The notes under the pieces: model-generated | Databases searched by the model: none | What the model was told of the DNA's origin: nothing | What the model saw: the letters and a program-made list of their open reading frames with translations, nothing else | In this document: positions 6,721 through 50,102 of the stretch, one piece after another | How the letters are laid out: the number at the start of each line of letters is the position of its first letter | How positions within the stretch are numbered: position 1 is the stretch's first letter | Translations under genes and position numbers: made by a program | DNA from: a virus | Taxonomy: Duplodnaviria > Caudoviricetes | DNA length: 54,966 bases | Virus record (IMG/VR): IMGVR_UViG_3300020156_000036 | Span: 1-54,966 of that record | Reading direction: 5' to 3' (one strand)

Positions 6721-6781
6721 ATCTCATCTCCACGTGATACATCGATAGTATCACGTCCTGCGATCATGTAAACCGCAGCCG

Positions 6782-10237: not shown

Positions 10238-10492
10238 CTATTGCGACAAATGCCGTTCCCAATCTGCTCGCCAGCCTGAAGGACCGGTTGGCACCTCAAA
10301 GTAGGCTTGACGAATACGAACCCTGATTAAATCTCCACTGATTGGCTTTAAGCTCACCAGGTAAGCTACTGGGATTATCCAGTATAGGTCATGCCCGCGC
10401 CAAGGATGACGTAACGCAATAGTCTTCTCACGCAACTCAAGGTTACGCGCTGGCACTCGTAGCACAAAGGTGGCTGCGGCGTTAGTTGGCAT
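10238..10492 (-). CDS. Hypothetical protein
   Basis: Operon packing. Confidence 0.55.
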   Translation of the reverse strand: MPTNAAATFVLRVPARNLELREKTIALRHPWRGHDLYWIIPVAYLVSLKPISGDLIRVRIRQAYFEVPTGPSGWRADWERHLSQ

Positions 10493-10715
10493 GGATGCCG
10501 TTCAGGCTCGCCAGCACTTTTGGAATCATAAGCCCGATAACTTTGCCGCTGCTGTCGTGAACACTCACTGGAACTTCCATGTCACGAACCTGATAGCGGC
10601 CACGGTTGACGTGAAACCATCGGTTGTCTTGGCGATCGTGAACTCGGCGAATATCGTCGGCCCAGACCCAGATAACTTCACCGATGACGGGGTAAATGTC
10701 TTCGACGATAACCAC
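10482..10715 (-). CDS. Hypothetical protein
   Basis: GGAG SD, GTG start. Confidence 0.6.
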   Translation of the reverse strand: MVIVEDIYPVIGEVIWVWADDIRRVHDRQDNRWFHVNRGRYQVRDMEVPVSVHDSSGKVIGLMIPKVLASLNGIHAN

Positions 10716-11891: not shown

Positions 11892-12212
11892 TCACGCTTC
11901 ATCGGTAGCCAGCTGCGCGTGGTGCAGGTCCATTTGGCCATAACCGAGTTCACCCATGGGGTACATCTTGTGGTCCCAGGGTCCGCCGGCAAGCCAGGAG
12001 AGGTGGCGGCGACCGGTGCCTTCGAGACGGATGCGCTTGCAGGTACGTCGACCAGTGAGGCGGTTCTCCCAGTATCCCCAGATGCCATAGCAGCCGACAT
12101 AGTCCCAGGTGAACTGAGAACGAACCCAGCGAATGAGGCCACGGTTGATGAGTGAGTCGAATGTGTTACTCACAGCAGCGACAGTGTTCAGAAAGTGATG
12201 GCGGACGTGCAT
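11892..12212 (-). CDS. Hypothetical protein
   Basis: ACGTGGAG SD and TTTACG-N17-TACAGT promoter. Confidence 0.65.
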   Translation of the reverse strand: MHVRHHFLNTVAAVSNTFDSLINRGLIRWVRSQFTWDYVGCYGIWGYWENRLTGRRTCKRIRLEGTGRRHLSWLAGGPWDHKMYPMGELGYGQMDLHHAQLATDEA

Positions 12213-12298
12213 CAGAAGTCTCCACGTTGATGTCTGAAGAGACTGTAACCTGAAAAAATGCGACCGTAAATCGGCTAGAGGAGTTTGACCTTGGAGAA

Positions 12299-12709
12299 CG
12301 GGAGGGAGATGCCGTTCACGAACTGTGGGTGCTTGACATGGCACCAGTCTTTGGTCGGGTGCCGCCAGTTAAGCGTGGCGGTGATCAGGAACTCAGGGTC
12401 CCAGGGTAAACGAAGGCGGACTTGCTGGCTCATCTAACTACCCACCCCGGTCGCACGCTGTATCACGTGGCCGGGGTCGGGTGTGCCTGCATTGCTTTCG
12501 CTGGAAGGTTCCAGCTGATCTGTGGCGACTAATCGTTCGGCAGGCTCCAAAGTAGCTGCAAGCAGCTCATGGTCTACTCGTCGATTGCCAGAGTCAAGAT
12601 CAATCTTGGCAGGTCTTGGTTCGCATGGAGACGGCAGTCACCGCCCCTGTGGCGTGTTTGGCGAAATGTGTACGGCCGCGCGACCAGCCTCAAGCGGGAC
12701 TCCCTCCCG
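12299..12709 (+). ncRNA. Candidate ~410-nt structured ncRNA with pseudoknot (RNA-2)
   Basis: Closing helix CGGGAGGGAG/CTCCCTCCCG; crossing helices 12310-12315/12631-12636 and 12377-12384/12638-12645; G-U pairs favour +; no convincing gene. Confidence 0.55.
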
Positions 12710-12847
12710 CACGGCGGAGGCCCATGTTTGTTTGCGCCGGCTCCGGCGGTGTTCGGCGATCATAGCGTGCTCGCTTCAACTGGCAGGACTGAATGTCCCG
12801 CGAACAAGAAGATTGTAGCACGTTAAGAGTGACTGTAAACAGGCCGA

Positions 12848-13114
12848 TTATTTCGGAGCCAGCTGTTGTACCAGGGTATGCAAGGTGCCAAGTACACCAC
12901 GCAGAATCTTCTTTTGTGTTTCTGACAAGCCTCGGTCACCAGGCTCCGTGGTCGTCTCATAGGTCGTAAAACGATGGCCGCAGTTGGCGCACTCGCGTCG
13001 ACGCCGCACGTAAGTGTCCTGAGGCCGACTGTCTACCGTAGAGCCTTTACGAGCACCACACTTAGCACAAGGTACTCCGACTGAGGTTCCACGTGGCCGA
13101 AAATGATCTGCCAT
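12848..13114 (-). CDS. NrdR-like N-terminal zinc-ribbon protein (no ATP cone)
   Basis: CAKCG..STVDSRP..VRRRRECANCGHRFTTYE. Confidence 0.85.
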   Translation of the reverse strand: MADHFRPRGTSVGVPCAKCGARKGSTVDSRPQDTYVRRRRECANCGHRFTTYETTTEPGDRGLSETQKKILRGVLGTLHTLVQQLAPK

Positions 13115-13120
13115 TAGGAT

Positions 13121-13411
13121 TCAGGACTCGCTCCTGATGATGCGACGGAACCTGTCAGGCTCAGCGAACTCGTCGTAAGGCCGCTGGTACTGCTCACGCG
13201 GATGCGGCCACAGGTGCTCATATGTGGCGAGCTGCTGGCCCTTTTGGACGTGAGGCCGGTTGCCCTTCCACTTGAGGTCCGAGTTTCGAAGACTGGTGAT
13301 CTCGAGGAGGCGGTAAATGCCGCCTCGTTTGTGGCGGTAAAGCTCGCCAGGCTCGTTGAGCGCTTCAGCCTCAGAAAGGAGGGACGAGGTCATCATCGTT
13401 TTACCGCTCAA
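13121..13411 (-). CDS. DUF1653-like protein
   Basis: GELYRHKRGGIYRLL...RPYDEF...RF pattern. Confidence 0.65.
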   Translation of the reverse strand: MSGKTMMTSSLLSEAEALNEPGELYRHKRGGIYRLLEITSLRNSDLKWKGNRPHVQKGQQLATYEHLWPHPREQYQRPYDEFAEPDRFRRIIRSES

Positions 13412-13543
13412 TGAAGCTTATGAAGATTTCTACAGGACCGATGATCATCCACCAGTTCTGCCAGCTTTTGCCAGCATCCAGTTGCCAGTCAAACGGTCTG
13501 ATGAACAAGCCGATTTCCAGATGCAGCGGGTTAGGGATATCCA

Positions 13544-13798
13544 TCACTTTTGTCTCCAGCGTTCAAACTCAGCACGAGCTTCGGCTTCGGTGAATGGTTC
13601 CGTGATCTGACGGTTAGGGTTTCCGTCGACGTAACCCACGACCTTGTAGTTCACGTCCCAGTGAAGGTCGAGTGAGTCTTCATCCTCGCCAGTCCAACAC
13701 ATGACATGCCAGCGATCGCCCTCGGCTTGCTTATGTAGCTCAAAGAGCTGAAACTGACCTGAGATGTCAGTGTGTTGGTGAGAGTCTATCAGAGCCAT
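13544..13798 (-). CDS. Hypothetical protein
   Basis: AGGA SD; operon packing. Confidence 0.6.
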   Translation of the reverse strand: MALIDSHQHTDISGQFQLFELHKQAEGDRWHVMCWTGEDEDSLDLHWDVNYKVVGYVDGNPNRQITEPFTEAEARAEFERWRQK

Positions 13799-13807
13799 GG
13801 CCGTTTC

Positions 13808-14200
13808 CTACAAGTCGAAATAGATATCGTCCTCGGTGCGTTCGACCAAGGAGCCGCCAGTGCGTTGACTGGTGTTGTCGCGAATAATCCATTTACCGTT
13901 ATCATAGGCAACAAGTCGACCATGATAATAACCCTCGTTAACTCCGGGTTCCGAGTTGTAACGCACCTTGTCGCCAACACGTAAAGGACGCTTGGTTACC
14001 TTCGCATCGAGAGGAGCGCGGAGCTCAGTATAACGGCTCACGTCGCTGAGATAGACTTCTGCGCCATACATTGGCTCAACGACAAGCCTGTCACCCTTGA
14101 TCTCAGTGACTCGGGCCTCGATCTGAATAATGTCGTTGACTCTGACCTTGTAGGTGTCGCCGACCACACCGGGGTGCGATTTATCTTGATGCAAAGTCAT
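13808..14200 (-). CDS. Hypothetical protein (two SH3/KOW-like beta repeats)
   Basis: VGDTYKV and LRVGDKVRY repeats. Confidence 0.6.
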   Translation of the reverse strand: MTLHQDKSHPGVVGDTYKVRVNDIIQIEARVTEIKGDRLVVEPMYGAEVYLSDVSRYTELRAPLDAKVTKRPLRVGDKVRYNSEPGVNEGYYHGRLVAYDNGKWIIRDNTSQRTGGSLVERTEDDIYFDL

Positions 14201-14201
14201 G

Positions 14202-14543
14202 TTAACCTACTAAGTGATTGGGCGGGCGGGGAATGAAACCGCTAACCGGTCGCCAGATGTGTAGGCAATACGGATGGCAGTTGATGTGCTCAGCTTCAGG
14301 GACATGGAGCTGCATACAGGTGTCGCTAGGCTCAAAGAAGCAGCGTTTCACCCACTCCATCTCTTCCCACGTAGGGCAACGGGTTTGGCAGGAGACAGAA
14401 ACGTGTTCCCAGCCTTCATCCGTCGAGGCGATTACCCTAAGGCGATCAGACTGCCAGGCTTTGAGCCCTAGCATATTTGGAATGGGTCTCCACAGAGACC
14501 TAGCGCTCATACCGGCGGCCATGATTGGGATTTCTCTCAACAT
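14202..14543 (-). CDS. Conserved phage protein (WEHVSVS..PTWEEM..HPYCLHIWRP family), probably leaderless
   Basis: Recognisable phage motif; TATACT -10 lies 6 nt upstream of the ATG. Confidence 0.75.
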   Translation of the reverse strand: MLREIPIMAAGMSARSLWRPIPNMLGLKAWQSDRLRVIASTDEGWEHVSVSCQTRCPTWEEMEWVKRCFFEPSDTCMQLHVPEAEHINCHPYCLHIWRPVSGFIPRPPNHLVG

Positions 14544-14583
14544 GTGGTCAGTATATCACGTCTAGAAGACAACGTGTAACGGC

Positions 14584-14620
14584 AAAACGAAAACGGCCGG
14601 CCCATCGCTGAGCCGGCCGT
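14584..14620 (-). terminator. Rho-independent terminator
   Basis: ACGGCCGGCTCA-GCGA-TGGGCCGGCCGT followed by TTTCGTTTT. Confidence 0.85.
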
Positions 14621-14647
14621 CCAGTCTGTGGAGACTGTGTTCAGCGA

Positions 14648-14908
14648 CTACTCGTCGCCGTCGCCGTCGCCGTCGTCGCCCAGCTCGCCATCGTCGCCGT
14701 CGTCGTCGCCCAGCTCGCCGTCGTCGCCCTGGTCGGTGTCGTCCACGGTGTCGGCCACCTGGGCCTGGTCTTCCGCCGGGGTGCCGCCGCCCGAGGTCGG
14801 TTCGTCCGCGCCGTCGTCGATCGTGGTGAGGCCATGGCCCTGGTCGCTGTTCATCATCAGGCAGGCGGCCAGCAGGCCGAACGCCAGCATTCCGTGGAGA
14901 TGCTTCAT
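14648..14908 (-). CDS. Exported or lipoprotein-like, very Asp/Gly-rich small protein
   Basis: MKHLHGMLAFGLLAAC signal/lipobox-like; GDDGELGDD repeats; own promoter and terminator. Confidence 0.7.
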   Translation of the reverse strand: MKHLHGMLAFGLLAACLMMNSDQGHGLTTIDDGADEPTSGGGTPAEDQAQVADTVDDTDQGDDGELGDDDGDDGELGDDGDGDGDE

Positions 14909-15005
14909 CGTCGTTGTTCCCTTGAGGGTGGTTGAACCGGAGTCGCTCCGGAGATTTGATAGTATCACGACGATTTTGGGAGGTAACTGGGCAAACGTTC
15001 GTTGC

Positions 15006-15146
15006 CTAGTTCATCTCGCTGAGCGTCTCCCGCAAAGCTTCAGCAGGGTCGGGCGAAGGCTCCTGAGTGTTCAAGAAGATAAGAACACCGATGAGGCATA
15101 ACGCTCCCAACAGTGCGGTTTGGATGATGGAAAGGGCGTGTTTCAT
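15006..15146 (-). CDS. Small membrane protein (46 aa)
   Basis: Manual translation MKHALSIIQTALLGALCLIGVLIFLN... Confidence 0.45.
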   Translation of the reverse strand: MKHALSIIQTALLGALCLIGVLIFLNTQEPSPDPAEALRETLSEMN

Positions 15147-15196
15147 GGAGGTGATTAGAGACTGCGAATCTTCAGCAGTACACCCTTACGGCTTGG

Positions 15197-15469
15197 TCAA
15201 TGTAGTCGACGTTGTAGTGGCCGAACCGTAATCAGGTCTGTCATAGGTTGGCAGTTCCTGAACGCGTAGAGCAAGGGCTCAGGGTCACCATTCAAGAACA
15301 CGCGAACCCACTCGATACGTCGGTTTGACGAGCAGCAGGCGTTGACGAAGAGGTTGTGTGCTTGCTGTTCATCTTTAGCAGGCATGCACTCAACGACTAC
15401 GCCGTTTCTGTCATAGGTCTGGACGTACAACCTAGAATGCTCCTGGATTGGCACGACGACCAGCCTCAA
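15197..15469 (-). CDS. Hypothetical protein
   Basis: ORF track; operon packing. Confidence 0.5.
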   Translation of the reverse strand: MRLVVVPIQEHSRLYVQTYDRNGVVVECMPAKDEQQAHNLFVNACCSSNRRIEWVRVFLNGDPEPLLYAFRNCQPMTDLITVRPLQRRLH

Positions 15470-15629
15470 TCTTGTTCTTGATTTCAGCTTCAGTAGCCGT
15501 CAGCCCACGCTCCTGCTGGAGAGTAGACAACCGCTCCATTGCTGCCGAGATGAACCGTCGCATCTCTGCGTCAGTAAAGTGCAGCGATCCCCGCACAGTG
15601 GTGATCGAGGCGTTATTGCGGTTGCGCAT
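15432..15629 (-). CDS. Hypothetical protein
   Basis: GGAG SD and TTTATG-N17-TATACT promoter. Confidence 0.65.
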   Translation of the reverse strand: MRNRNNASITTVRGSLHFTDAEMRRFISAAMERLSTLQQERGLTATEAEIKNKIEAGRRANPGAF

Positions 15630-15688
15630 GACAGTCTCCGTTGAACCTAAGGACAGTATATACTGCTTTCAGTTCACCATAAATAGGC

Positions 15689-17950
15689 TTAGAACGGCAC
15701 GCCGTCATCCTTGGAAATCGCTGCGGCTTGATCACCTTCGTCGTCTTGCCACGCTGTAGCGCCGCCTAGAACCTTATCGAACATCTCACGGCAGGCCTTT
15801 AGGGGCGGCAGCTCGTAACCCCAGGTTCGGACTGACTGGATTTGACCCAGATTGTCGAGTTGCTGAATGGTCATGCGCGAGCGCTTGAGCTCGCCACCAG
15901 GTACCAAGGCTGCAATCTCACGACCAAACTGGTTGTCAGCTACGCGCCGCCGCTCACCCCAGTCAGTGGCGCGCTTGATGTAAGCCTGGTAGAGGTGCTC
16001 GGTTGAAACTTTCTCAGGCCAACCCAATGTGGTGCGTGGCATGATCTCACCATCTCGCAGCCGTTCATACCAGAACCGCTGGACCGCGTCCATGGTGTGT
16101 ATCTTTTGGTCGACTAGTGCAGACGTGTTAGGGATGACTCCCACGTCCACCGTAGACAAGTCCAGGTGGAGTAGATGGTGGAGTAGACCCTCAAATCCCC
16201 CGTTCTTGAGCTGGTCCTCCATCGCTTTGAAATAGGCGCGGTTCTGTTTCTTACCTTCGCCCACATCCTGCACAAGGAATCGACGCTCGTCAAAAGCCGC
16301 TGGAACGATAAAGCCTTCGTTTGAACTGATCAGCAGCCGCATAAAGTTCTGGGTTTCGATAGAGTCCTTGCCTTTGAACTCAATGCGGTTCTTCTCAGAC
16401 GTCACCATGCCTTTAAGGCGACCAACGACTCGGGGGTCACCAGCGAAGAATGCTTCGTCAGCATGCAGCAGAAGGCAACTAGCTTGGTGGGAGTTGAACT
16501 GTCCCACGACATAGCGCGGGTCGTCCACCAAGATATAGTGCTGGGGCACCAGTGCACCGATGATCTTGCCGATGATCGTTTTACCTGTACCCTGCTTGCC
16601 ACGGAAACCGATTGATGTACCAGGCTTAATCTGAGGTTGCTGATACATCTGAGCAAACCATGCCCACAGCCAGTTGTTCAGCGACTCGTCACCCTGCGCG
16701 ACATTCTCGAACATGTGCTCCTTGAACAGTGAGAAGTCGCCATCCGGGTCAGGTTCATAGGCAAAGCCTCGCCACAGGTTGTAATCGCGCTTGATCACAC
16801 TGCCTGGTTTAAACGTAACGCCGTGGTAGGTACGACGCCGTTCCGACTTCATCCAGACATTGGGTGCTGGTTCTTCCTTGCGGCCCATCTGAACATAGCG
16901 GTTGCCGAACAGCATGCCGAAAGCCGTGGTCGACATGAACTGAATATCGACCTTGTTCGGGTGTTCCTCGTCAGGCTTTTCCCACAGCACAACTGTTTTA
17001 TCACCGACTAGGACGAGAGCGAACTGCTGGTTGTATTCAGAGACCAGGTCAAGTTGCTGCTCTTCGTAAAGCTGTGCAGTACGGACGAGGTAGATCGGGT
17101 CCAGTCCGACCGAGTCAGGGATAGTATCAGCCAGGTCCCAGCCCTCAGGCAAACCTGCTGGCAACTGCACAGTCTTTACGGTCCGAGCGCCCTCGCGCTT
17201 CAGGATTTCGCAAACTTGCGCTTGAGCCTTGTAACCAGGCTCATCGGCATCTGGCCAGAACACGACGTCTCTTCCAGCCAAGCCTGACCAGTCGACATAC
17301 TTGGCGGCTTTAGAGCCGCCTGGCCAGGTAACGACAAGGTATTCACCACCAAAGATGAGCTGAGCCGCGTCCGTCGTTTTTTCACCCTCAACAACTAGCA
17401 CAGGGGCTTCAGGGTATTCCTTCAGCAGGTTACCACGGTAAAGTGGCCTCGGTTTGACGAAACCTTTCCAGCACCAAGACTCCTTGGCAGAGTCAGCGTC
17501 GCGGCCCCAGCACATTGGCGCCAGTTCCTTGATCGTCTTGGTTCCGACGACTTTTTCAAAGCGACAGATAAAACCTACCAGTCGACCCTCAAGGTCACGG
17601 TACTCCCAGGTCTTTTCGGCCGGACCTAGTCGGGGATGGGTAAACGAGCCAGGTCTGCTGGCGTTGGCTGGTGCGAACTTCTGCGGGACCCAGTTACGAC
17701 GGGCTCTTGGCCAGAGGTCTTGGCGCTTGAGCGCGTCGATGACATCCTCTTGGCGACAGCCTGAATGACAGTGGACGAGTAGCCGTCCTCCGTTACCTTC
17801 ACTGACAGTAAGGCTGGGTCCTTTATCATTGTGAGCAGGACAGACAGTATTCCACGAGCCGTCGCCATTCTGAAACTCCTTGCCCTCGCCCAACGCATGG
17901 GCGATTGTCTCAGGTTTAATAACCTGCCCCGACTGCTGTGGTAATGCCAT
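15689..17950 (-). CDS. Primase-helicase (Zn-binding + TOPRIM + SF3/DUF5906-type helicase)
   Basis: CPAHND..SL..CHSGC; VEGEKTTDA and WPDADEPG; Walker A GKQGTGKT; ADEAF; DERRF. Confidence 0.9.
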   Translation of the reverse strand: MALPQQSGQVIKPETIAHALGEGKEFQNGDGSWNTVCPAHNDKGPSLTVSEGNGGRLLVHCHSGCRQEDVIDALKRQDLWPRARRNWVPQKFAPANASRPGSFTHPRLGPAEKTWEYRDLEGRLVGFICRFEKVVGTKTIKELAPMCWGRDADSAKESWCWKGFVKPRPLYRGNLLKEYPEAPVLVVEGEKTTDAAQLIFGGEYLVVTWPGGSKAAKYVDWSGLAGRDVVFWPDADEPGYKAQAQVCEILKREGARTVKTVQLPAGLPEGWDLADTIPDSVGLDPIYLVRTAQLYEEQQLDLVSEYNQQFALVLVGDKTVVLWEKPDEEHPNKVDIQFMSTTAFGMLFGNRYVQMGRKEEPAPNVWMKSERRRTYHGVTFKPGSVIKRDYNLWRGFAYEPDPDGDFSLFKEHMFENVAQGDESLNNWLWAWFAQMYQQPQIKPGTSIGFRGKQGTGKTIIGKIIGALVPQHYILVDDPRYVVGQFNSHQASCLLLHADEAFFAGDPRVVGRLKGMVTSEKNRIEFKGKDSIETQNFMRLLISSNEGFIVPAAFDERRFLVQDVGEGKKQNRAYFKAMEDQLKNGGFEGLLHHLLHLDLSTVDVGVIPNTSALVDQKIHTMDAVQRFWYERLRDGEIMPRTTLGWPEKVSTEHLYQAYIKRATDWGERRRVADNQFGREIAALVPGGELKRSRMTIQQLDNLGQIQSVRTWGYELPPLKACREMFDKVLGGATAWQDDEGDQAAAISKDDGVPF

Positions 17951-17951
17951 C

Positions 17952-18725
17952 TTACACGTTCATCGTATGATCTTCGAGCTTGTGTCGCTTGCCCGGATAG
18001 TACAGGAAACCGATATCGCCCAGTTCCGGCGCATAGTACGAGAAAATGCGCCACGGGTCTTGCTTCGTCTTGATGATGCCTTCACGAACGGCTTGGTGCA
18101 TCATATCTTTGAGTTCGGTCTCGACTGCTCGAGTCCTGCCGAACTTGATCAGTTCTTCACAGATTTGCCGCTTCTGTTTATTGAACTTGGCGATGATTTC
18201 CATGTTCTCAGGTAGGGTCATCCGGTCAAGCCGGATGGTGAACTGATCATCGTCAGCCACCTCGTTTATCGAGGTGGTTTGTTCGATGCGATCGGCGACC
18301 TGTTGTAATAGCAGCCAGAGCCAGTTCGCAGCGTCTATGCGACTGCCCATAAGGTCATCGGGCATGGGCTCAAAGTGTGGTGGTTCGATGGCCGCCGGAT
18401 TTTCCTGAGCTTGCTGCTTCCAGGTCTTATTCCAACACCTTGCGAAACCGGCAGCCTTGGCCTTTAGGCTGGTAGCGGCCGCGGTCTTGACGTTGAAGTA
18501 GGCGTAGGCGTCGAACAGGTCTTGGGTGCCAAAATGGCGAGCGAGGTCGTAAGGGCTCTGAAAGACTGTTCGACAGTTACTGCCGTATTTATCGGTGAGC
18601 AGGTCCATGGTGCGGAAAGTGCGTGCTGTCCAGCGCTGCGACTCTTCCTCATGGGCTTTCAGTTGCTTGCAGAGGAAAAGTACCCACTCGCCCTCTGGTC
18701 GTTCTTCATAGTCTGCATATTCCAC
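17952..18725 (-). CDS. Protein with C-terminal winged-helix-like domain (paralog 2)
   Basis: IIKTKQDPWRIFSYYAPELGDIG; ACGTGGAG SD and TTTACA promoter. Confidence 0.7.
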   Translation of the reverse strand: MEYADYEERPEGEWVLFLCKQLKAHEEESQRWTARTFRTMDLLTDKYGSNCRTVFQSPYDLARHFGTQDLFDAYAYFNVKTAAATSLKAKAAGFARCWNKTWKQQAQENPAAIEPPHFEPMPDDLMGSRIDAANWLWLLLQQVADRIEQTTSINEVADDDQFTIRLDRMTLPENMEIIAKFNKQKRQICEELIKFGRTRAVETELKDMMHQAVREGIIKTKQDPWRIFSYYAPELGDIGFLYYPGKRHKLEDHTMNV

Positions 18726-18819
18726 GTTGCAGTCTCCACGTTGATATCTGACATTACACTTTCCGGGTGTTCATGTAAACTTTCAGGGCGTGGATTAACC
18801 CCACTGATGGTGCAGATAC

Positions 18820-19198
18820 AACAATGGCCCCGATGCACGTGGATACACCGGAGCCATCATTGCCGTGCGACTTCCGTCTCCACGTTCCAAGCTAATCTCG
18901 CGACCCGTGGCCGGGAGATGCTTGGCGACCAGGCCACGCAAGCGTGTCCCAGCCCCTCTGATGCGGCGGCAGATATAAGTGCCTGCCTGTTACCCCTCGG
19001 GCACGCGCTTGTTCTCCTACACACCTGATCGGCCTGCCTTGAACGCGTCCTAAGAGGCGTAACCAGCAGACGGACCTAGGCTTCGGTGAGCCCGCTATCC
19101 CTCAGACCGCTTCGGTGCCCTGGTTGCCAGCCGATCGGACCCCTTGCGCACGGGCCATGCTGACAACCCTACCGTCAAAGACGGAGTCCCGGAGCCAG
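18820..19198 (-). ncRNA. Candidate ~380-nt structured ncRNA with pseudoknot (RNA-1)
   Basis: Crossing helices 19179-19188/18869-18879 and 19147-19153/18863-18869; inner helices 19129-19136/19027-19034 and 19120-19125/19061-19066; 14-bp 3' hairpin with three G-U pairs on the - strand. Confidence 0.6.
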
Positions 19199-19200
19199 GA

Positions 19201-19228
19201 AACCCTCCCCGCCGAAGCGAAGAGGGCA
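19201..19228 (-). terminator. Hairpin with UUCG loop and short U tract (weak terminator or processing site)
   Basis: CCCTCTTCGC-TTCG-GCGGGGAGGG-TTT. Confidence 0.65.
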
Positions 19229-19243
19229 ACCGTTGGACCAGGC

Positions 19244-19633
19244 TTACGCCGTGGCGCCGGCGGCCGGCTTCGGAGCCGCGGCGGCCGGCTTCGGAGCAGC
19301 GGCAGCGGTTTCCTTGGCGGCGCCGGCGGCGGCCGGCTTGGCGGCGGTCTCCTTGGCCGGCTTCTCCGGCTTCGGTTCCGCTTCCTTCTCGATGACGATG
19401 ATGCCCTTTTCGACCAGCTGCGGCTGGTAGAAGGACAGGATGCGCGCCGGGTCCTGGCGGGTCGTCAGCTCGGACGACTTGGTCAGGGTCTCGATCACCG
19501 TCTTGCGCTCGGCGCGCTCGCCCGGCTTGCCGTCCTTGACCGAGGCGACGACGGCGTTGGCGCAGGCCTTGATCTGCGGGCCCAGCTTGTCGTCGTCCTT
19601 GGGCAGACGCACCAGCTTGATGAAGGTCTTCAT
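19244..19633 (-). CDS. Histone-H1-like protein: winged-helix-like domain plus Lys/Pro/Ala tail (paralog 3)
   Basis: LTTRQDPARILSFYQPQLVEKG then KPAAAAPKPAA tail; GGAG SD; TTTACA-N17-TACATT promoter; strong codon bias. Confidence 0.75.
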   Translation of the reverse strand: MKTFIKLVRLPKDDDKLGPQIKACANAVVASVKDGKPGERAERKTVIETLTKSSELTTRQDPARILSFYQPQLVEKGIIVIEKEAEPKPEKPAKETAAKPAAAGAAKETAAAAPKPAAAAPKPAAGATA

Positions 19634-19894
19634 GGTCTTTCTCCGTGTTGAACGCCGCTCAGTGCGGCTTGCATCGAGCAGCGTTGAATGACTCGATGAT
19701 TTGAATGTAGCGTGTCGCATTCATCATGTAAATAGGTGAAATGAACTCGACGCTTGGCCACTTACTACGTGCCATGCTCCCGTGTGTATAGAGTCTATAA
19801 GGAGTGCCTCCGGGGCATGCGTCACTCTCCGCAGTTTACACACGTTTCTGAGCATGCTACTCTTGACCATCATTCAGCCTTAAAGGACACTGTT

Positions 19895-20863
19895 GTGGCA
19901 AACGAACGGGGCAAGTCGATCGACAACACCCACCTGTCGATCGATCAAGCGGAGGCTCGTGGGTTTATCCACCGCGACTACATCGCTCACTGCCTTCGCT
20001 GGACTCACGTCGCGAAGTATATGCAGAAGAGCACTGTCTATCCGCGTGCCAGGGTCCTTGACATCGGTTGTGGCGTCGACTTGCCGCTGGCTCGTCTGCT
20101 CTATTCCTCTCGCCTGATCGTGGAGGACTACGTCGGCGTGGAATACAACAAGTCGCACAAGTTCAAGACCGAACCGTTCCACACCGGCAAGTTCCCGATG
20201 TCTGCCTACGGCTCCATCGATTTCGCGCACCCTGACCAGGTGATCATCGCCAACCCGCCTGAAGGTAGCAAGCTCACCGACAACCGCGTGATGTGGTATG
20301 GCGGTGACAACGAGCAAGCCTTCCACCGCCTGCCCAACGTTTTCGTTTCCTTCGAGATGCTGGAACACATCGAACCGGGGCATGCTCGCGCGGTTATGCG
20401 CAAGGTCTATGAGATGATGGTCGCCTGCCGAGAGGACACCGGCGACAATCCCATCGGCTTCTTCAGCACACCTTGCTGGAGTCCGCGGGTTGGCGCCGCT
20501 GCTAACCACGTCAACGAGATGCTGTACGAAGCACTCGGCGCAATGTTCGAAGACCTGGGCTTCGTCATCGAAAATGTCGCTGGGACTTTCGCCAGTCAGT
20601 CCGACTACAAGGGCCAGCTGATCGCCGACGGACACCTGTCGGCCTACAACGCGCTGTCTGAACACTATGACAGCAACTACCTGGCGACCATCTTCGCACC
20701 GCTCTATCCTCACTTGGCTCGTAACGCCCTTTGGACTCTGCGCGTTCCGAAGCCCGGCCAGGAATACGAGCGCAAGTTCCTGCCGCTCGCTGAGGTCGCT
20801 GGACCTTGGACTTCGTCGGCTCACTGGGAAGACCTGGCCTCGGATGAAGCCTATGGAAGCTGA
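19895..20863 (+). CDS. Class I SAM-dependent methyltransferase (small-molecule/O-MTase type)
   Basis: VLDIGCG, YVGVE, FEMLEHI, FFSTP, HVNE. GTG at 19895 follows AAGGAC and a TTTACA-N17-TACTCT promoter. No DPPY/NPPY or PCQ DNA-MTase motif. Confidence 0.85.
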   Translation: MANERGKSIDNTHLSIDQAEARGFIHRDYIAHCLRWTHVAKYMQKSTVYPRARVLDIGCGVDLPLARLLYSSRLIVEDYVGVEYNKSHKFKTEPFHTGKFPMSAYGSIDFAHPDQVIIANPPEGSKLTDNRVMWYGGDNEQAFHRLPNVFVSFEMLEHIEPGHARAVMRKVYEMMVACREDTGDNPIGFFSTPCWSPRVGAAANHVNEMLYEALGAMFEDLGFVIENVAGTFASQSDYKGQLIADGHLSAYNALSEHYDSNYLATIFAPLYPHLARNALWTLRVPKPGQEYERKFLPLAEVAGPWTSSAHWEDLASDEAYGS

Positions 20864-49090: not shown

Positions 49091-49475
49091 CGGCCACCAT
49101 GATCGCTGGATGGTTCAGACGGAGCATATCCAGAAACCGTTTACCGAAAGAAGTCCGGCTTAACAGGCTGGCAGTCTTTGTGGTGTCCGCACCAGGTGCC
49201 TTCATCGACACACTGAGCGAAGAAATCTTGATCTGGGAGATGCCAGCGTCGCCTAGCGCCGCAAACTTGGCTTCTCGACCAGTGCCGTGACCATCCATGG
49301 TCAAGACATGGGCTGCATAAAGCAGTTGAGCTTGTTGAAAATCCTCCTCGCGCCAGGTTTGGTCGACCTTATTAGCTGCTTCTCCCAAAGCAGCTTGCAG
49401 CACCGTATCCGCCACCCCAGCGAAGCTGGGGAAGCGGGTTTTCAGGTCCTGTACGGTCGGCGCAACATATGGCAC
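49077..49475 (-). CDS. Head-tail adaptor (DUF4054-like)
   Basis: KTRFPSF, LYAAHVL, TSFGKRF. Confidence 0.8.
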   Translation of the reverse strand: MPYVAPTVQDLKTRFPSFAGVADTVLQAALGEAANKVDQTWREEDFQQAQLLYAAHVLTMDGHGTGREAKFAALGDAGISQIKISSLSVSMKAPGADTTKTASLLSRTSFGKRFLDMLRLNHPAIMVADGRP

Positions 49476-49499
49476 GAGGAGGTTCCAGCCCGAGCAGTC

Positions 49500-50102
49500 T
49501 TACGACTGCTGTTCGGCGCCGTCGCCGGCGTCTTCGGTGTTGTCCGTCGACTCCGCGCCGCCGCCGTCGCCGGGGTCGGTCACGTCACCTTCGTCCGAAG
49601 GGTCGGGGGTCACAGGCGATTGCAGGTTGTGTTCGGCCGCGTAGGCGTTGGCCTCGTCTTCGTTCATCGCCTGCGTGATCTTCTCGTCGCCGCGCATGCC
49701 GTAGAAACGACCGAAGCCACGGTGCTCGACGTGGGTCGGACCGTCGGACTGTTCGTCGTCGAGACCGTCATCGTCGTCGCCGCCAGTCGGTTCTTCCGGC
49801 ACGATATCGCCTTCGCCACCGACCGTGGCAGCATCGACAGGGTTCCCTGTCTTGAGTTCCGGCTGCTCGCCGCCGATGTCCACGCTGGTCGCCTTCGGCA
49901 GGTCATCTTCCGACGCGGGTTCCAACACGAAGTGCTTCAGGTCGATGTAGGGCTGAATGCCCTTGACATCGTTTTCGCTGAGACGAAGGACCTTCGACTC
50001 ATCCTTCTGCAGGCTATGCCCGCCGGTGGCCGTCAGAACCATCCGCGGTCCCGGGGCCTTGTTCGTAACGCGGAAAACCGCGGTCTTCTGTTCGTCGGCC
50101 AC
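49500..50102 (-). CDS. Acidic hypothetical protein downstream of the capsid gene
   Basis: GGAG SD, GTG start; Asp/Glu-rich. Confidence 0.7.
   Translation of the reverse strand: MADEQKTAVFRVTNKAPGPRMVLTATGGHSLQKDESKVLRLSENDVKGIQPYIDLKHFVLEPASEDDLPKATSVDIGGEQPELKTGNPVDAATVGGEGDIVPEEPTGGDDDDGLDDEQSDGPTHVEHRGFGRFYGMRGDEKITQAMNEDEANAYAAEHNLQSPVTPDPSDEGDVTDPGDGGGAESTDNTEDAGDGAEQQS

Follow-up and report, generated by a model that had tools for sequence, protein, structure and literature searches.

The window analysed here, a linear IMG/VR virus record of 54,966 bp that is estimated to be 75% complete, is a soil phage contig whose genes are oriented on the minus strand from about 1 to 21 kb. Within this region lie the two stretches with which this study is concerned, RNA-1 on the minus strand and RNA-2 on the plus strand, which an initial annotation had drawn as two large members of one new class of phage non-coding RNAs (ncRNAs). 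RNA-1 is a trailer behind a gene that encodes a protein of 129 amino acids (aa), and RNA-2, placed at positions 12299-12709, covers part of a small gene for a 52-aa protein on the opposite strand together with part of the adjoining spacer. The features of both loci are collected in Table 1, along with the leaders of early genes that share a sequence with RNA-1.

On its own strand, RNA-1 folds with a minimum free energy (MFE) of -220.5 kcal/mol, which corresponds to a z-score of -5.79 and was not reached by any of 100 shuffled sequences, whereas the plus strand has a z-score of only -1.27. A coding function of this stretch was considered and rejected, as there is no frame-specific conservation: tblastn with all 19 stop-to-stop frames of at least 20 aa found no conserved frame. 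A homolog of 292 nucleotides (nt) is present at positions 10421-10712 of a related contig, L006, where it again follows that contig's copy of the 129-aa gene, and this copy has z-scores of -7.45 in sense orientation (0 of 200 shuffles as good) and -4.97 in antisense orientation. The 3' parts of the two RNAs are 80% identical over 74 nt, and the 5' parts, which account for the different total lengths of 439 and 292 nt, are not alignable by blastn. A scan of the whole window with Rfam 15 at the gathering threshold gave 0 matches, with GOLLD, ROOL, HEARO, ribozymes and riboswitches included in the models searched. RNA-1 thus stands as a genuine non-coding, strongly folded and strand-specific element that is kept in one relative and matches no known Rfam family, and this part of the initial annotation holds.

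When base pairs are allowed to span no more than 60 nt, four hairpins of the 3' domain, Ha, Hb, Hc and Hd, occur in the same order in the window and L006 copies of RNA-1, and the hairpin array of the 5' part is variable. In Ha, one G-C pair has become A-U by a double change, and several G-U pairs are conserved. The Hc block differs between the window and L006 by two bases only, and these two bases form one pair that has changed from U-A to C-G (columns 82/98), so that the block is more conserved than the flanking genes with their 70-75% identity; in L006, the pair probability of Hc is about 0.9. In the RNAalifold table, four predicted pairs have changed on both sides, and the U-A to C-G exchange of Hc is one of them. 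The apex of Hd, GUAUCCACGUGC, which comprises 12 nt, and its 3' side, UUGUUGUAU, are identical in both copies. About 8 positions differ in the lower stem of Hd, and a by-eye reading of the pair lists, with the two stems aligned at their bases, assigns 6 of them to changes on both sides, 2 to changes on one side and 0 to broken pairs. As the conserved helices hold many G-U pairs, the folds are specific to one strand.

The position of Hd within the two genomes is that of an element at a transcription-unit border. In the window, it lies just ahead of the TTTACA-17-TAATGT promoter and the leader of the next operon; in L006, it follows the stop codon of a convergent 350-aa gene at a distance of 19 nt. 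Hd is a probable intrinsic terminator of the unit, which possibly works in both directions. At the other end of the trailer, the hairpin h0 may be a leaky terminator or a processing or stability hairpin. The promoter-like site upstream of the 129-aa gene was the sole one flagged by a scan of positions 18500-20000.

The 129-aa protein has 29 metagenomic homologs and is 71% identical to the copy of L002/L006. Members of its family share a conserved alpha/beta domain of 88 residues, in which PARILSFYQ is invariant, and a disordered tail rich in Ala, Pro and Lys. The protein has no match in Pfam or PHROG, and its AlphaFold2 model (predicted local distance difference test score 72) matched no structure of the PDB at E <= 0.001. 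Look-alikes of the model in a structure atlas, which can serve as a lead only, are the winged-helix domains HTH_36, Fur and PriA 3'BD with TM scores of 0.6-0.68. The protein is a putative DNA-binding protein, the layout of which recalls linker-histone-like DNA binders. Promoter, 129-aa gene and RNA-1 are inverted as one block in L006, and both flanks are colinear. Reverse matches connect window positions 18815-18888 and 19258-19737 with L006 positions 10697-10627 and 10373-9916, respectively, and the whole inverted block extends from about 18790 to 19800 in the window and from about 9815 to 10712 in L006. Contigs of two metagenome runs carry the inverted joints 18732/19710 (run X1) and 18051/19710 (run X2). 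There are no inverted repeats at the borders of the block; a programmed DNA inversion was rejected for this reason, and the inversion is therefore an evolutionary rearrangement. As the block was inverted as a unit, RNA-1 belongs to the 129-aa gene.

Table 1. Positions of the genes, hairpins, promoter-like sites and leader copies discussed in the text; window coordinates unless L006 is named
Feature	Position	Strand	Remarks
Promoter-like site TTTACA-17-TACATT	19732-19704	(-)	upstream of 129-aa gene
129-aa gene	19244..19633	(-)	same unit as RNA-1; folded N-terminal domain, Ala/Pro/Lys-rich tail
RNA-1 trailer	18805..19243	(-)	439 nt; between stop codon of 129-aa gene and promoter of next operon
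h0	19202..19227	(-)	11-bp GC-rich hairpin with UUCG loop; just past stop codon, followed by UUUCCU
Strand A of proposed pseudoknot, GACUCCGUCU	19179..19188	(-)	pairs with AGACGGAAGUC at 18879-18869
Ha	18927..18954	(-)	same hairpin in window and L006
Hb	18887..18925	(-)	3'-domain hairpin; shape differs between the two phages
Hc	18864..18884	(-)	motif as local hairpin CGYG-GA-GAC-GGAA-GUC-G-CRCG; GGAA tetraloop
Hd	18818..18863	(-)	terminal hairpin; 21 bp in window, 19 bp in L006; -32 and -33 kcal/mol
Leader copy AACGTGGAGAC	18732..18742	(-)	6 nt ahead of GTG start of 257-aa gene
257-aa gene	17952-18725	(-)	GTG start
Primase-helicase gene	15689-17950	minus-strand region	DUF5906; PHROG 'DNA primase', E 4e-41
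NrdR-like zinc-ribbon gene	12848-13114		88 aa; PF22811, E 9e-14
Promoter-like site TTTACA-16-TACAAT with TG	12839-12812	(-)	strong; 10/12 consensus matches; best in area
Non-coding spacer with rest of RNA-2 and motif copy	12434..12847	.	no plausible open reading frame
52-aa protein gene	12433-12275	(-)	conserved; under 5' third of RNA-2
Early cassette sites, window	18741, 12227, 10194, 9320, 6735, 3941, 3410	(-)	leader match
Early cassette site, window	28025	(+)	leader match
Early cassette sites, L006	640, 1343, 5796	(-)	leader match
Early cassette site, L006	17966	(+)	leader match

For RNA-2, the description as non-coding is true of the spacer part only, as its first 135 nt are antisense to the conserved 52-aa gene, an open reading frame (ORF) that is shorter than the usual length cut-off. 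This ORF is a gene because it has homologs and because of the codon positions at which it varies: the homolog at positions 4161-4006 of L006 is 56% identical over 52 of 52 residues (tblastn, E 1e-20), the homolog P0030 on a metagenomic contig of 53.9 kb likewise has 52 aa and is 83% identical, and the differences between the window and L006 fall on codon positions 1, 2 and 3 in numbers of 23, 13 and 30. The conserved pattern of the protein is RLPWDPE...DWCH.K...VNGIS.P.SKVK. Within this gene lie strands A and B of RNA-2, its 5' closing arm and its first hairpin with CATGGC. The remaining spacer, 12434-12847, contains no convincing ORF as judged by eye only, and its folding is inconspicuous, with z-scores of -1.46 and -1.47 on the two strands. 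Windows of 300 nt in the RNA-2 region are typical of this genome, as 43 to 99 of 168 background windows are equally low. For exactly 12299-12709, z is -2.41 on the plus strand and -2.79 on the minus strand, which is largely due to the 10-bp terminal inverted repeat. The strong promoter-like site at 12839 lies on the minus strand, so that transcription would run antisense to the proposed RNA-2. In L006, a 96-aa gene and the 52-aa gene abut, and the 410-nt spacer is absent together with the zinc-ribbon gene (12434-13114); one metagenome contig skips 12737-12900. Over 12207-12617, metagenomic relatives are about 87% identical and have 7-8 gaps, as would fit a leader that is non-coding. R1, a covariance model of the 3' domain of RNA-1, was run with filters off over 12100-12950, and matched only the 15-nt motif, with 6.2 bits and an E of 0.052 for the 851 nt searched. 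That RNA-2 is an RNA of the same kind as RNA-1 is therefore not supported, since one third of it is antisense to a gene, the folding of its non-coding part is at the level of shuffled sequences, the promoter is opposed, and R1 recognizes the motif alone.

The motif that had suggested a relationship is indeed present in both stretches, as TGGAGACGGAAGTCGC at 18882-18867 on the minus strand and as TGGAGACGGCAGTCAC at 12626-12641 on the plus strand, with 14 of 16 positions identical. When the two stretches are dinucleotide-shuffled, 41 of 500 pairs contain a match of at least 14/16 in either orientation, and 3 of 128 other 411-nt tiles of the genome match RNA-1 at this level. The similarity is marginal, and the pair was chosen post hoc, after 55 kb had been read. 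All other quoted strings are also in place, namely GACTCCGTCT at 19188-19179, CATGGC at 19159, CCGTGCG at 19153 and CGCACGG at 18869 on the minus strand of RNA-1, and GATGCCGTT at 12308, CATGGC at 12337, GGCGGTGA at 12377 and TCACCGCC at 12638 on the plus strand of RNA-2. CATGGC occurs in both, but two sequences of 400 nt are expected to have hexamers in common by chance; we calculate about 39 shared 6-mers. The closing helix that had been proposed exists in RNA-2 as a perfect 10-bp inverted repeat (CGGGAGGGAG at 12299-12308 and CTCCCTCCCG at 12700-12709, with 391 nt between the arms), but its left arm lies within the 52-aa coding sequence, and we estimate that a stretch of 600 nt contains such a repeat by chance with a probability of about 0.2.

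The crossing arrangement of the proposed pseudoknot, in which strands A and B lie upstream and pair with the adjacent strands A' and B', was scored as the best summed duplex energy, for which 200 shuffles of the upstream sequence served as reference. The energy of RNA-1 is reached by 1 of the 200 shuffles, but that of RNA-2 is reached by 80 and that of the L006 homolog by 143, and a pseudoknot common to RNA-1 and RNA-2 is not supported. Helix A of RNA-1 is part of the MFE structure and has pair probabilities of about 0.8-1.0 in the ensemble of the window; its energy is reached by 7 of 200 shuffles in the window and by 53 of 200 in L006, where the helix is not kept. Helix A competes with Hc, which can be enforced at a cost of only 1.9 kcal/mol. 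The 3' strand of Hc, in which the compensatory change lies, overlaps B', so that the A-to-G change, which might be counted in favour of helix B, has its simpler explanation in Hc. The motif is thus better described as a local hairpin than as a pseudoknot strand, as both RNA-1 homologs fit this hairpin and the sole two bases that differ between them are a compensatory pair.

How can these observations be combined? We consider it the best explanation, at a probability of roughly 0.6, that the two stretches differ in kind, RNA-1 being a structured 3' untranslated region (UTR) that ends in a terminator, and RNA-2 being no RNA gene in the form in which it was drawn. The RNA-1 unit would then consist, in this order, of the promoter at 19732, the 129-aa gene, the trailer and the terminal hairpin Hd. 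As a promoter of its own is not seen, RNA-1 would be transcribed by read-through from the gene promoter. Hd, with its U-rich 3' side, would end the transcript and thereby insulate the unit from the adjacent replication operon, and in the relative it would insulate the unit from the convergent gene. The 3' end of the mRNA is probably protected by the stacked hairpins, and a stable 3'-UTR-derived RNA may in addition arise from the trailer; we infer where the transcript starts and ends, that Hd terminates it, and that the hairpins stabilize it. The motif would act as the Hc hairpin with its GGAA tetraloop and not as a strand of a pseudoknot. The stretch 12434-12709 is part of a poorly structured spacer, most likely a leader on the minus strand, whose transcription, if it occurs, would start from the promoter at 12839 and lead into the 52-aa gene.

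Several observations weigh against this explanation. RNA-1 is represented by two sequences only, so that the covariation rests on one pairwise comparison. A further locus, L005, which was the sole one obtained from a scan of metagenome contigs, codes for a protein with 69% aa identity and has the gene followed by a plain terminator, without RNA-1, and the element is therefore dispensable. The ensemble of the window favours the long-range helix A at high probability, and not Hc. Hd was not flagged by the terminator scan, which demanded at least 5 T in 8 positions and a loop of 3-8 nt and found 0 sites in 18500-20000, and the U tract of Hd is interrupted (UUGUUGUAU forms the 3' side of its lower stem). 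The hairpin h0 with its short U-rich tail might already end most transcripts. Low z-scores also occur elsewhere in the genome: among the 168 background windows of 300 nt, for which 20 shuffles each gave a mean z of -1.13 with a standard deviation of 1.5, 8 are as low as the best 300-nt window of RNA-1 (-3.86), and 49201-49500 on the plus strand, described as a coding stretch, reaches -5.58 with 0 of 200 shuffles as good. The long ORFs in the region that surrounds 49201-49500 run on the minus strand. Because of these low background scores, it is chiefly the non-coding status, the linkage to the gene and the conserved hairpins that make the case for RNA-1, known from two sequences, and z-scores of folding are by themselves a weak criterion in this genome. 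Finally, the stem of Hd has drifted although its apex, like the Hc block, is invariant, a contrast that a role purely in cis leaves unexplained.

This last point leads to a sequence that RNA-1 shares with other transcripts of the phage. The 11-mer AACGTGGAGAC is found, with at most one mismatch, at 7 sites of the window, all of them on the minus strand, when 1.13 would be expected, and 0 of 100 shuffles reach 7 sites. It constitutes the 5' side of Hc and also the leader and ribosome-binding region of early genes. Six of the sites, together with those at 6735 and 28025 that match a shorter pattern, lie 4-7 nt ahead of a start codon, and the seventh is Hc. Most of the leader sites are preceded by a promoter of the type TTTACA-N17-GATACT, and the early cassette as a whole can be written as TTTACA, about 17 nt, a GATACT-like hexamer, about 10-13 nt, ACGTGGAGA, 4-7 nt, and the start codon. 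In our reading, the ACGU part of the leader is not explained by ordinary Shine-Dalgarno pairing.

RNA-1 could accordingly be thought to act in trans, as a 3'-UTR-derived small RNA (sRNA) or sponge whose Hd apex UCCACGU pairs with ACGUGGA of the leader AACGUGGAGAC and thereby blocks early translation, with Hc as a mimic or decoy of the leader. The enrichment of AACGTGGAGAC would agree with this, and so would the complementarity of the Hd apex to ACGUGGA over 7 contiguous pairs, the identity of the apex in L006, where the leaders keep ACGTGGAGA, and the fact that no part of RNA-1 is more conserved than the Hc block and the apex of Hd. However, only CCAC of the apex is unpaired in the fold and the remainder is engaged in four weak pairs, TCCACGT is not rare with 7 copies on the minus strand, and the complementarity was noticed post hoc, with a chance probability that we estimate at about 0.01, uncorrected. 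Moreover, the Hc copy of L006 has drifted to ACGCGGAGAC, and as the change is compensated inside Hc, selection there acts on the hairpin and not on the leader sequence. Duplexes calculated with RNAduplex between the leaders and the whole RNA-1 have long loops and are uninterpretable. We regard such a trans-acting RNA, for which ACGUGGAGAC are the leader letters in question, as quite unlikely. Extended to its full form, in which RNA-1 would be a phage-encoded global translational switch that governs at least 8 early units by UCCACGU/ACGUGGA pairing and carries Hc as built-in decoy or auto-inhibitor, the idea is decidedly unlikely. A weaker form would use the motif as the pairing site in trans, since Hc is complementary at 15 of 16 positions, one G-U pair included, to the leader that precedes the 52-aa gene on the minus strand. 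The opposite view is that RNA-1 has no function beyond that of a terminator, and that it is a fast-evolving, GC-rich spacer, perhaps with the decayed start of a gene, in which folding is a tendency of the genome. The background z-scores, with their mean of -1.13 and tails beyond -5, point in this direction, as do the 5' two-thirds that cannot be aligned by blastn and differ in length between the copies, the absence of RNA-1 in L005, and the AACGTGGAGAC copy in Hc that has no start codon behind it. Yet none of the 100 and 200 shuffles, respectively, folds as well as the two RNA-1 copies, compensatory changes accompany the conservation of Ha, Hc and Hd, and the Hc block differs by 2 bases only when the flanking genes have diverged to 70-75% identity; we consider a mere spacer unlikely.

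It is also conceivable that the stretch acts as DNA, namely as a replication origin or a protein-binding region beside the primase-helicase module, and that the hairpins are by-products of inverted repeats. In both phages, less than 1 kb separates RNA-1 from the primase gene and the 257-aa gene, the L006 copy folds well also in antisense (z -4.97), and the invariant apex contains the palindrome CACGTG. Against this, the fold of the window is strongly strand-specific (-5.79 versus -1.27), the many G-U pairs of the conserved helices would be C-A on the other strand, neither iterons nor long direct or inverted repeats were found, and the inversion has carried RNA-1 along with the 129-aa gene and not with the replication genes, which makes a function at the DNA level very unlikely. 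Hardly any credence remains for the shared class of the initial annotation, in which RNA-1 and RNA-2 would be united by the motif and an A-hairpin-B...A'-B' pseudoknot. It could draw on the 14/16 match, which is so rare among the tiles of the genome, on the crossing pairing of RNA-1 that a single shuffle in 200 reaches, on the presence of helix A in the MFE structure, and on the perfect closing helix of RNA-2. However, the closing arm, strand A, CATGGC and strand B of RNA-2 all lie inside the conserved 52-aa gene on the other strand, the crossing energies of RNA-2 and of the L006 homolog are common among shuffles, as is the 14/16 match itself among shuffled pairs, B' coincides with the 3' strand of Hc that bears the compensatory change, the covariance model shows likeness at the motif only, the relative has RNA-1 without the RNA-2 region, and the promoter at RNA-2 points the opposite way. 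The class is therefore largely refuted.

Compared with intrinsic terminators, Hd has the GC-rich stem, the A-rich 5' flank, the U-rich 3' side and the position at the end of a transcription unit, which in L006 is a position between convergent genes. It differs by the unusual length of its stem (19-21 bp), the invariant 12-nt apex and the interrupted U tract, and by having escaped the scan. The helix order had also been likened to that of RNase P RNA, with which RNA-1 shares only a long-range closing helix in the MFE structure of the window and a GGAG..GAAGUC string that faintly resembles the conserved P4-forming sequence of RNase P RNA. This likeness does not carry further, as the long-range helix is not kept in the L006 homolog and no RNase P model matches: none did so at the gathering threshold in the whole window, at E <= 5 in 12000-19500, or at E <= 10 in positions 18780-19260 of the window and 10400-10730 of L006, where Rfam gave only generic hairpin matches far below threshold. 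Pseudomonas phage PAK_P3 has the 3'-UTR-derived ncRNA1 (~210 nt) and ncRNA2 (~120 nt), which lack a start site of their own (PMC10914365). Like these, RNA-1 is a structured element at the 3' end of a unit; it lies directly behind a coding sequence of the same strand, and the sole promoter-like site is upstream of this coding sequence. There is no relation in sequence or by Rfam, RNA-1 is longer (290-440 nt), and the PAK_P3 RNAs were seen experimentally, whereas RNA-1 is only predicted. A 3'-UTR-derived phage ncRNA combined with an intrinsic terminator is the nearest known kind. GOLLD, ROOL and OLE (PMC12286853) belong to the large, ornate and structured RNAs of bacteria and phages, which have unknown functions and are sometimes borne by phages; from these, RNA-1 differs in that it has no Rfam match, is smaller, comes from two contigs and has no supported multistem junction architecture. 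Base-pairing sRNAs that occlude the ribosome-binding site (RBS), phage-derived examples of which are covered in a review (PMC12197685), resemble RNA-1 by the conserved 7-nt stretch in its terminal hairpin that is complementary to the RBS-proximal leader of several mRNAs. In case of RNA-1, however, this seed is mostly buried in the apex of a stem, and the pairing is only predicted.

With respect to the surrounding genome, the matches of the primase gene in the phage collection are distant, all with less than 40% identity in the blastn/tblastn search, and RNA-1, RNA-2 and the 129-aa protein have no match there by blastn and tblastn. Seven viral contig scans for RNA-1 homologs yielded one relative (IMGVR_UViG_3300007790_000315) or none, a protein scan of genome contigs for relatives gave no match, and no relatives over 18804-19057 were found in two DNA metagenome runs. 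The window sequence is also present in a soil metagenome run, and no RNA run containing the stretch was found among the sequencing runs that match the window sequence. ARAGORN found 0 transfer RNA or transfer-messenger RNA genes within the window. Below threshold, the Rfam scan of 12000-19500 gave two matches on the minus strand, at 14587-14660 and 14802-14868. At the Xoo2/Xoo8 match (E 0.16-0.77), the sequence forms a hairpin that resembles a terminator and has a U run, and the match to the Pseudomonas sRNA P10 scores 23.6 bits when the gathering score is 37 (E 0.021); both are probably generic hairpins. The literature contained nothing that we could find on the RNA-1 element, and this absence is no proof that the element is unpublished.

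A practical lesson from this locus is that a conserved gene of only 52 aa was missed, and a coding stretch was read as RNA as a consequence. Should RNA-1 be no more than a structured trailer that ends in a terminator, it would represent an ordinary, though unusually elaborate, phage gene architecture, and the proposed new class of RNA disappears. The invariance of Hc and of the Hd apex, together with their relation to the leaders of early genes, would nevertheless provide a lead, cheap to test, on post-transcriptional control in uncultured soil phages.

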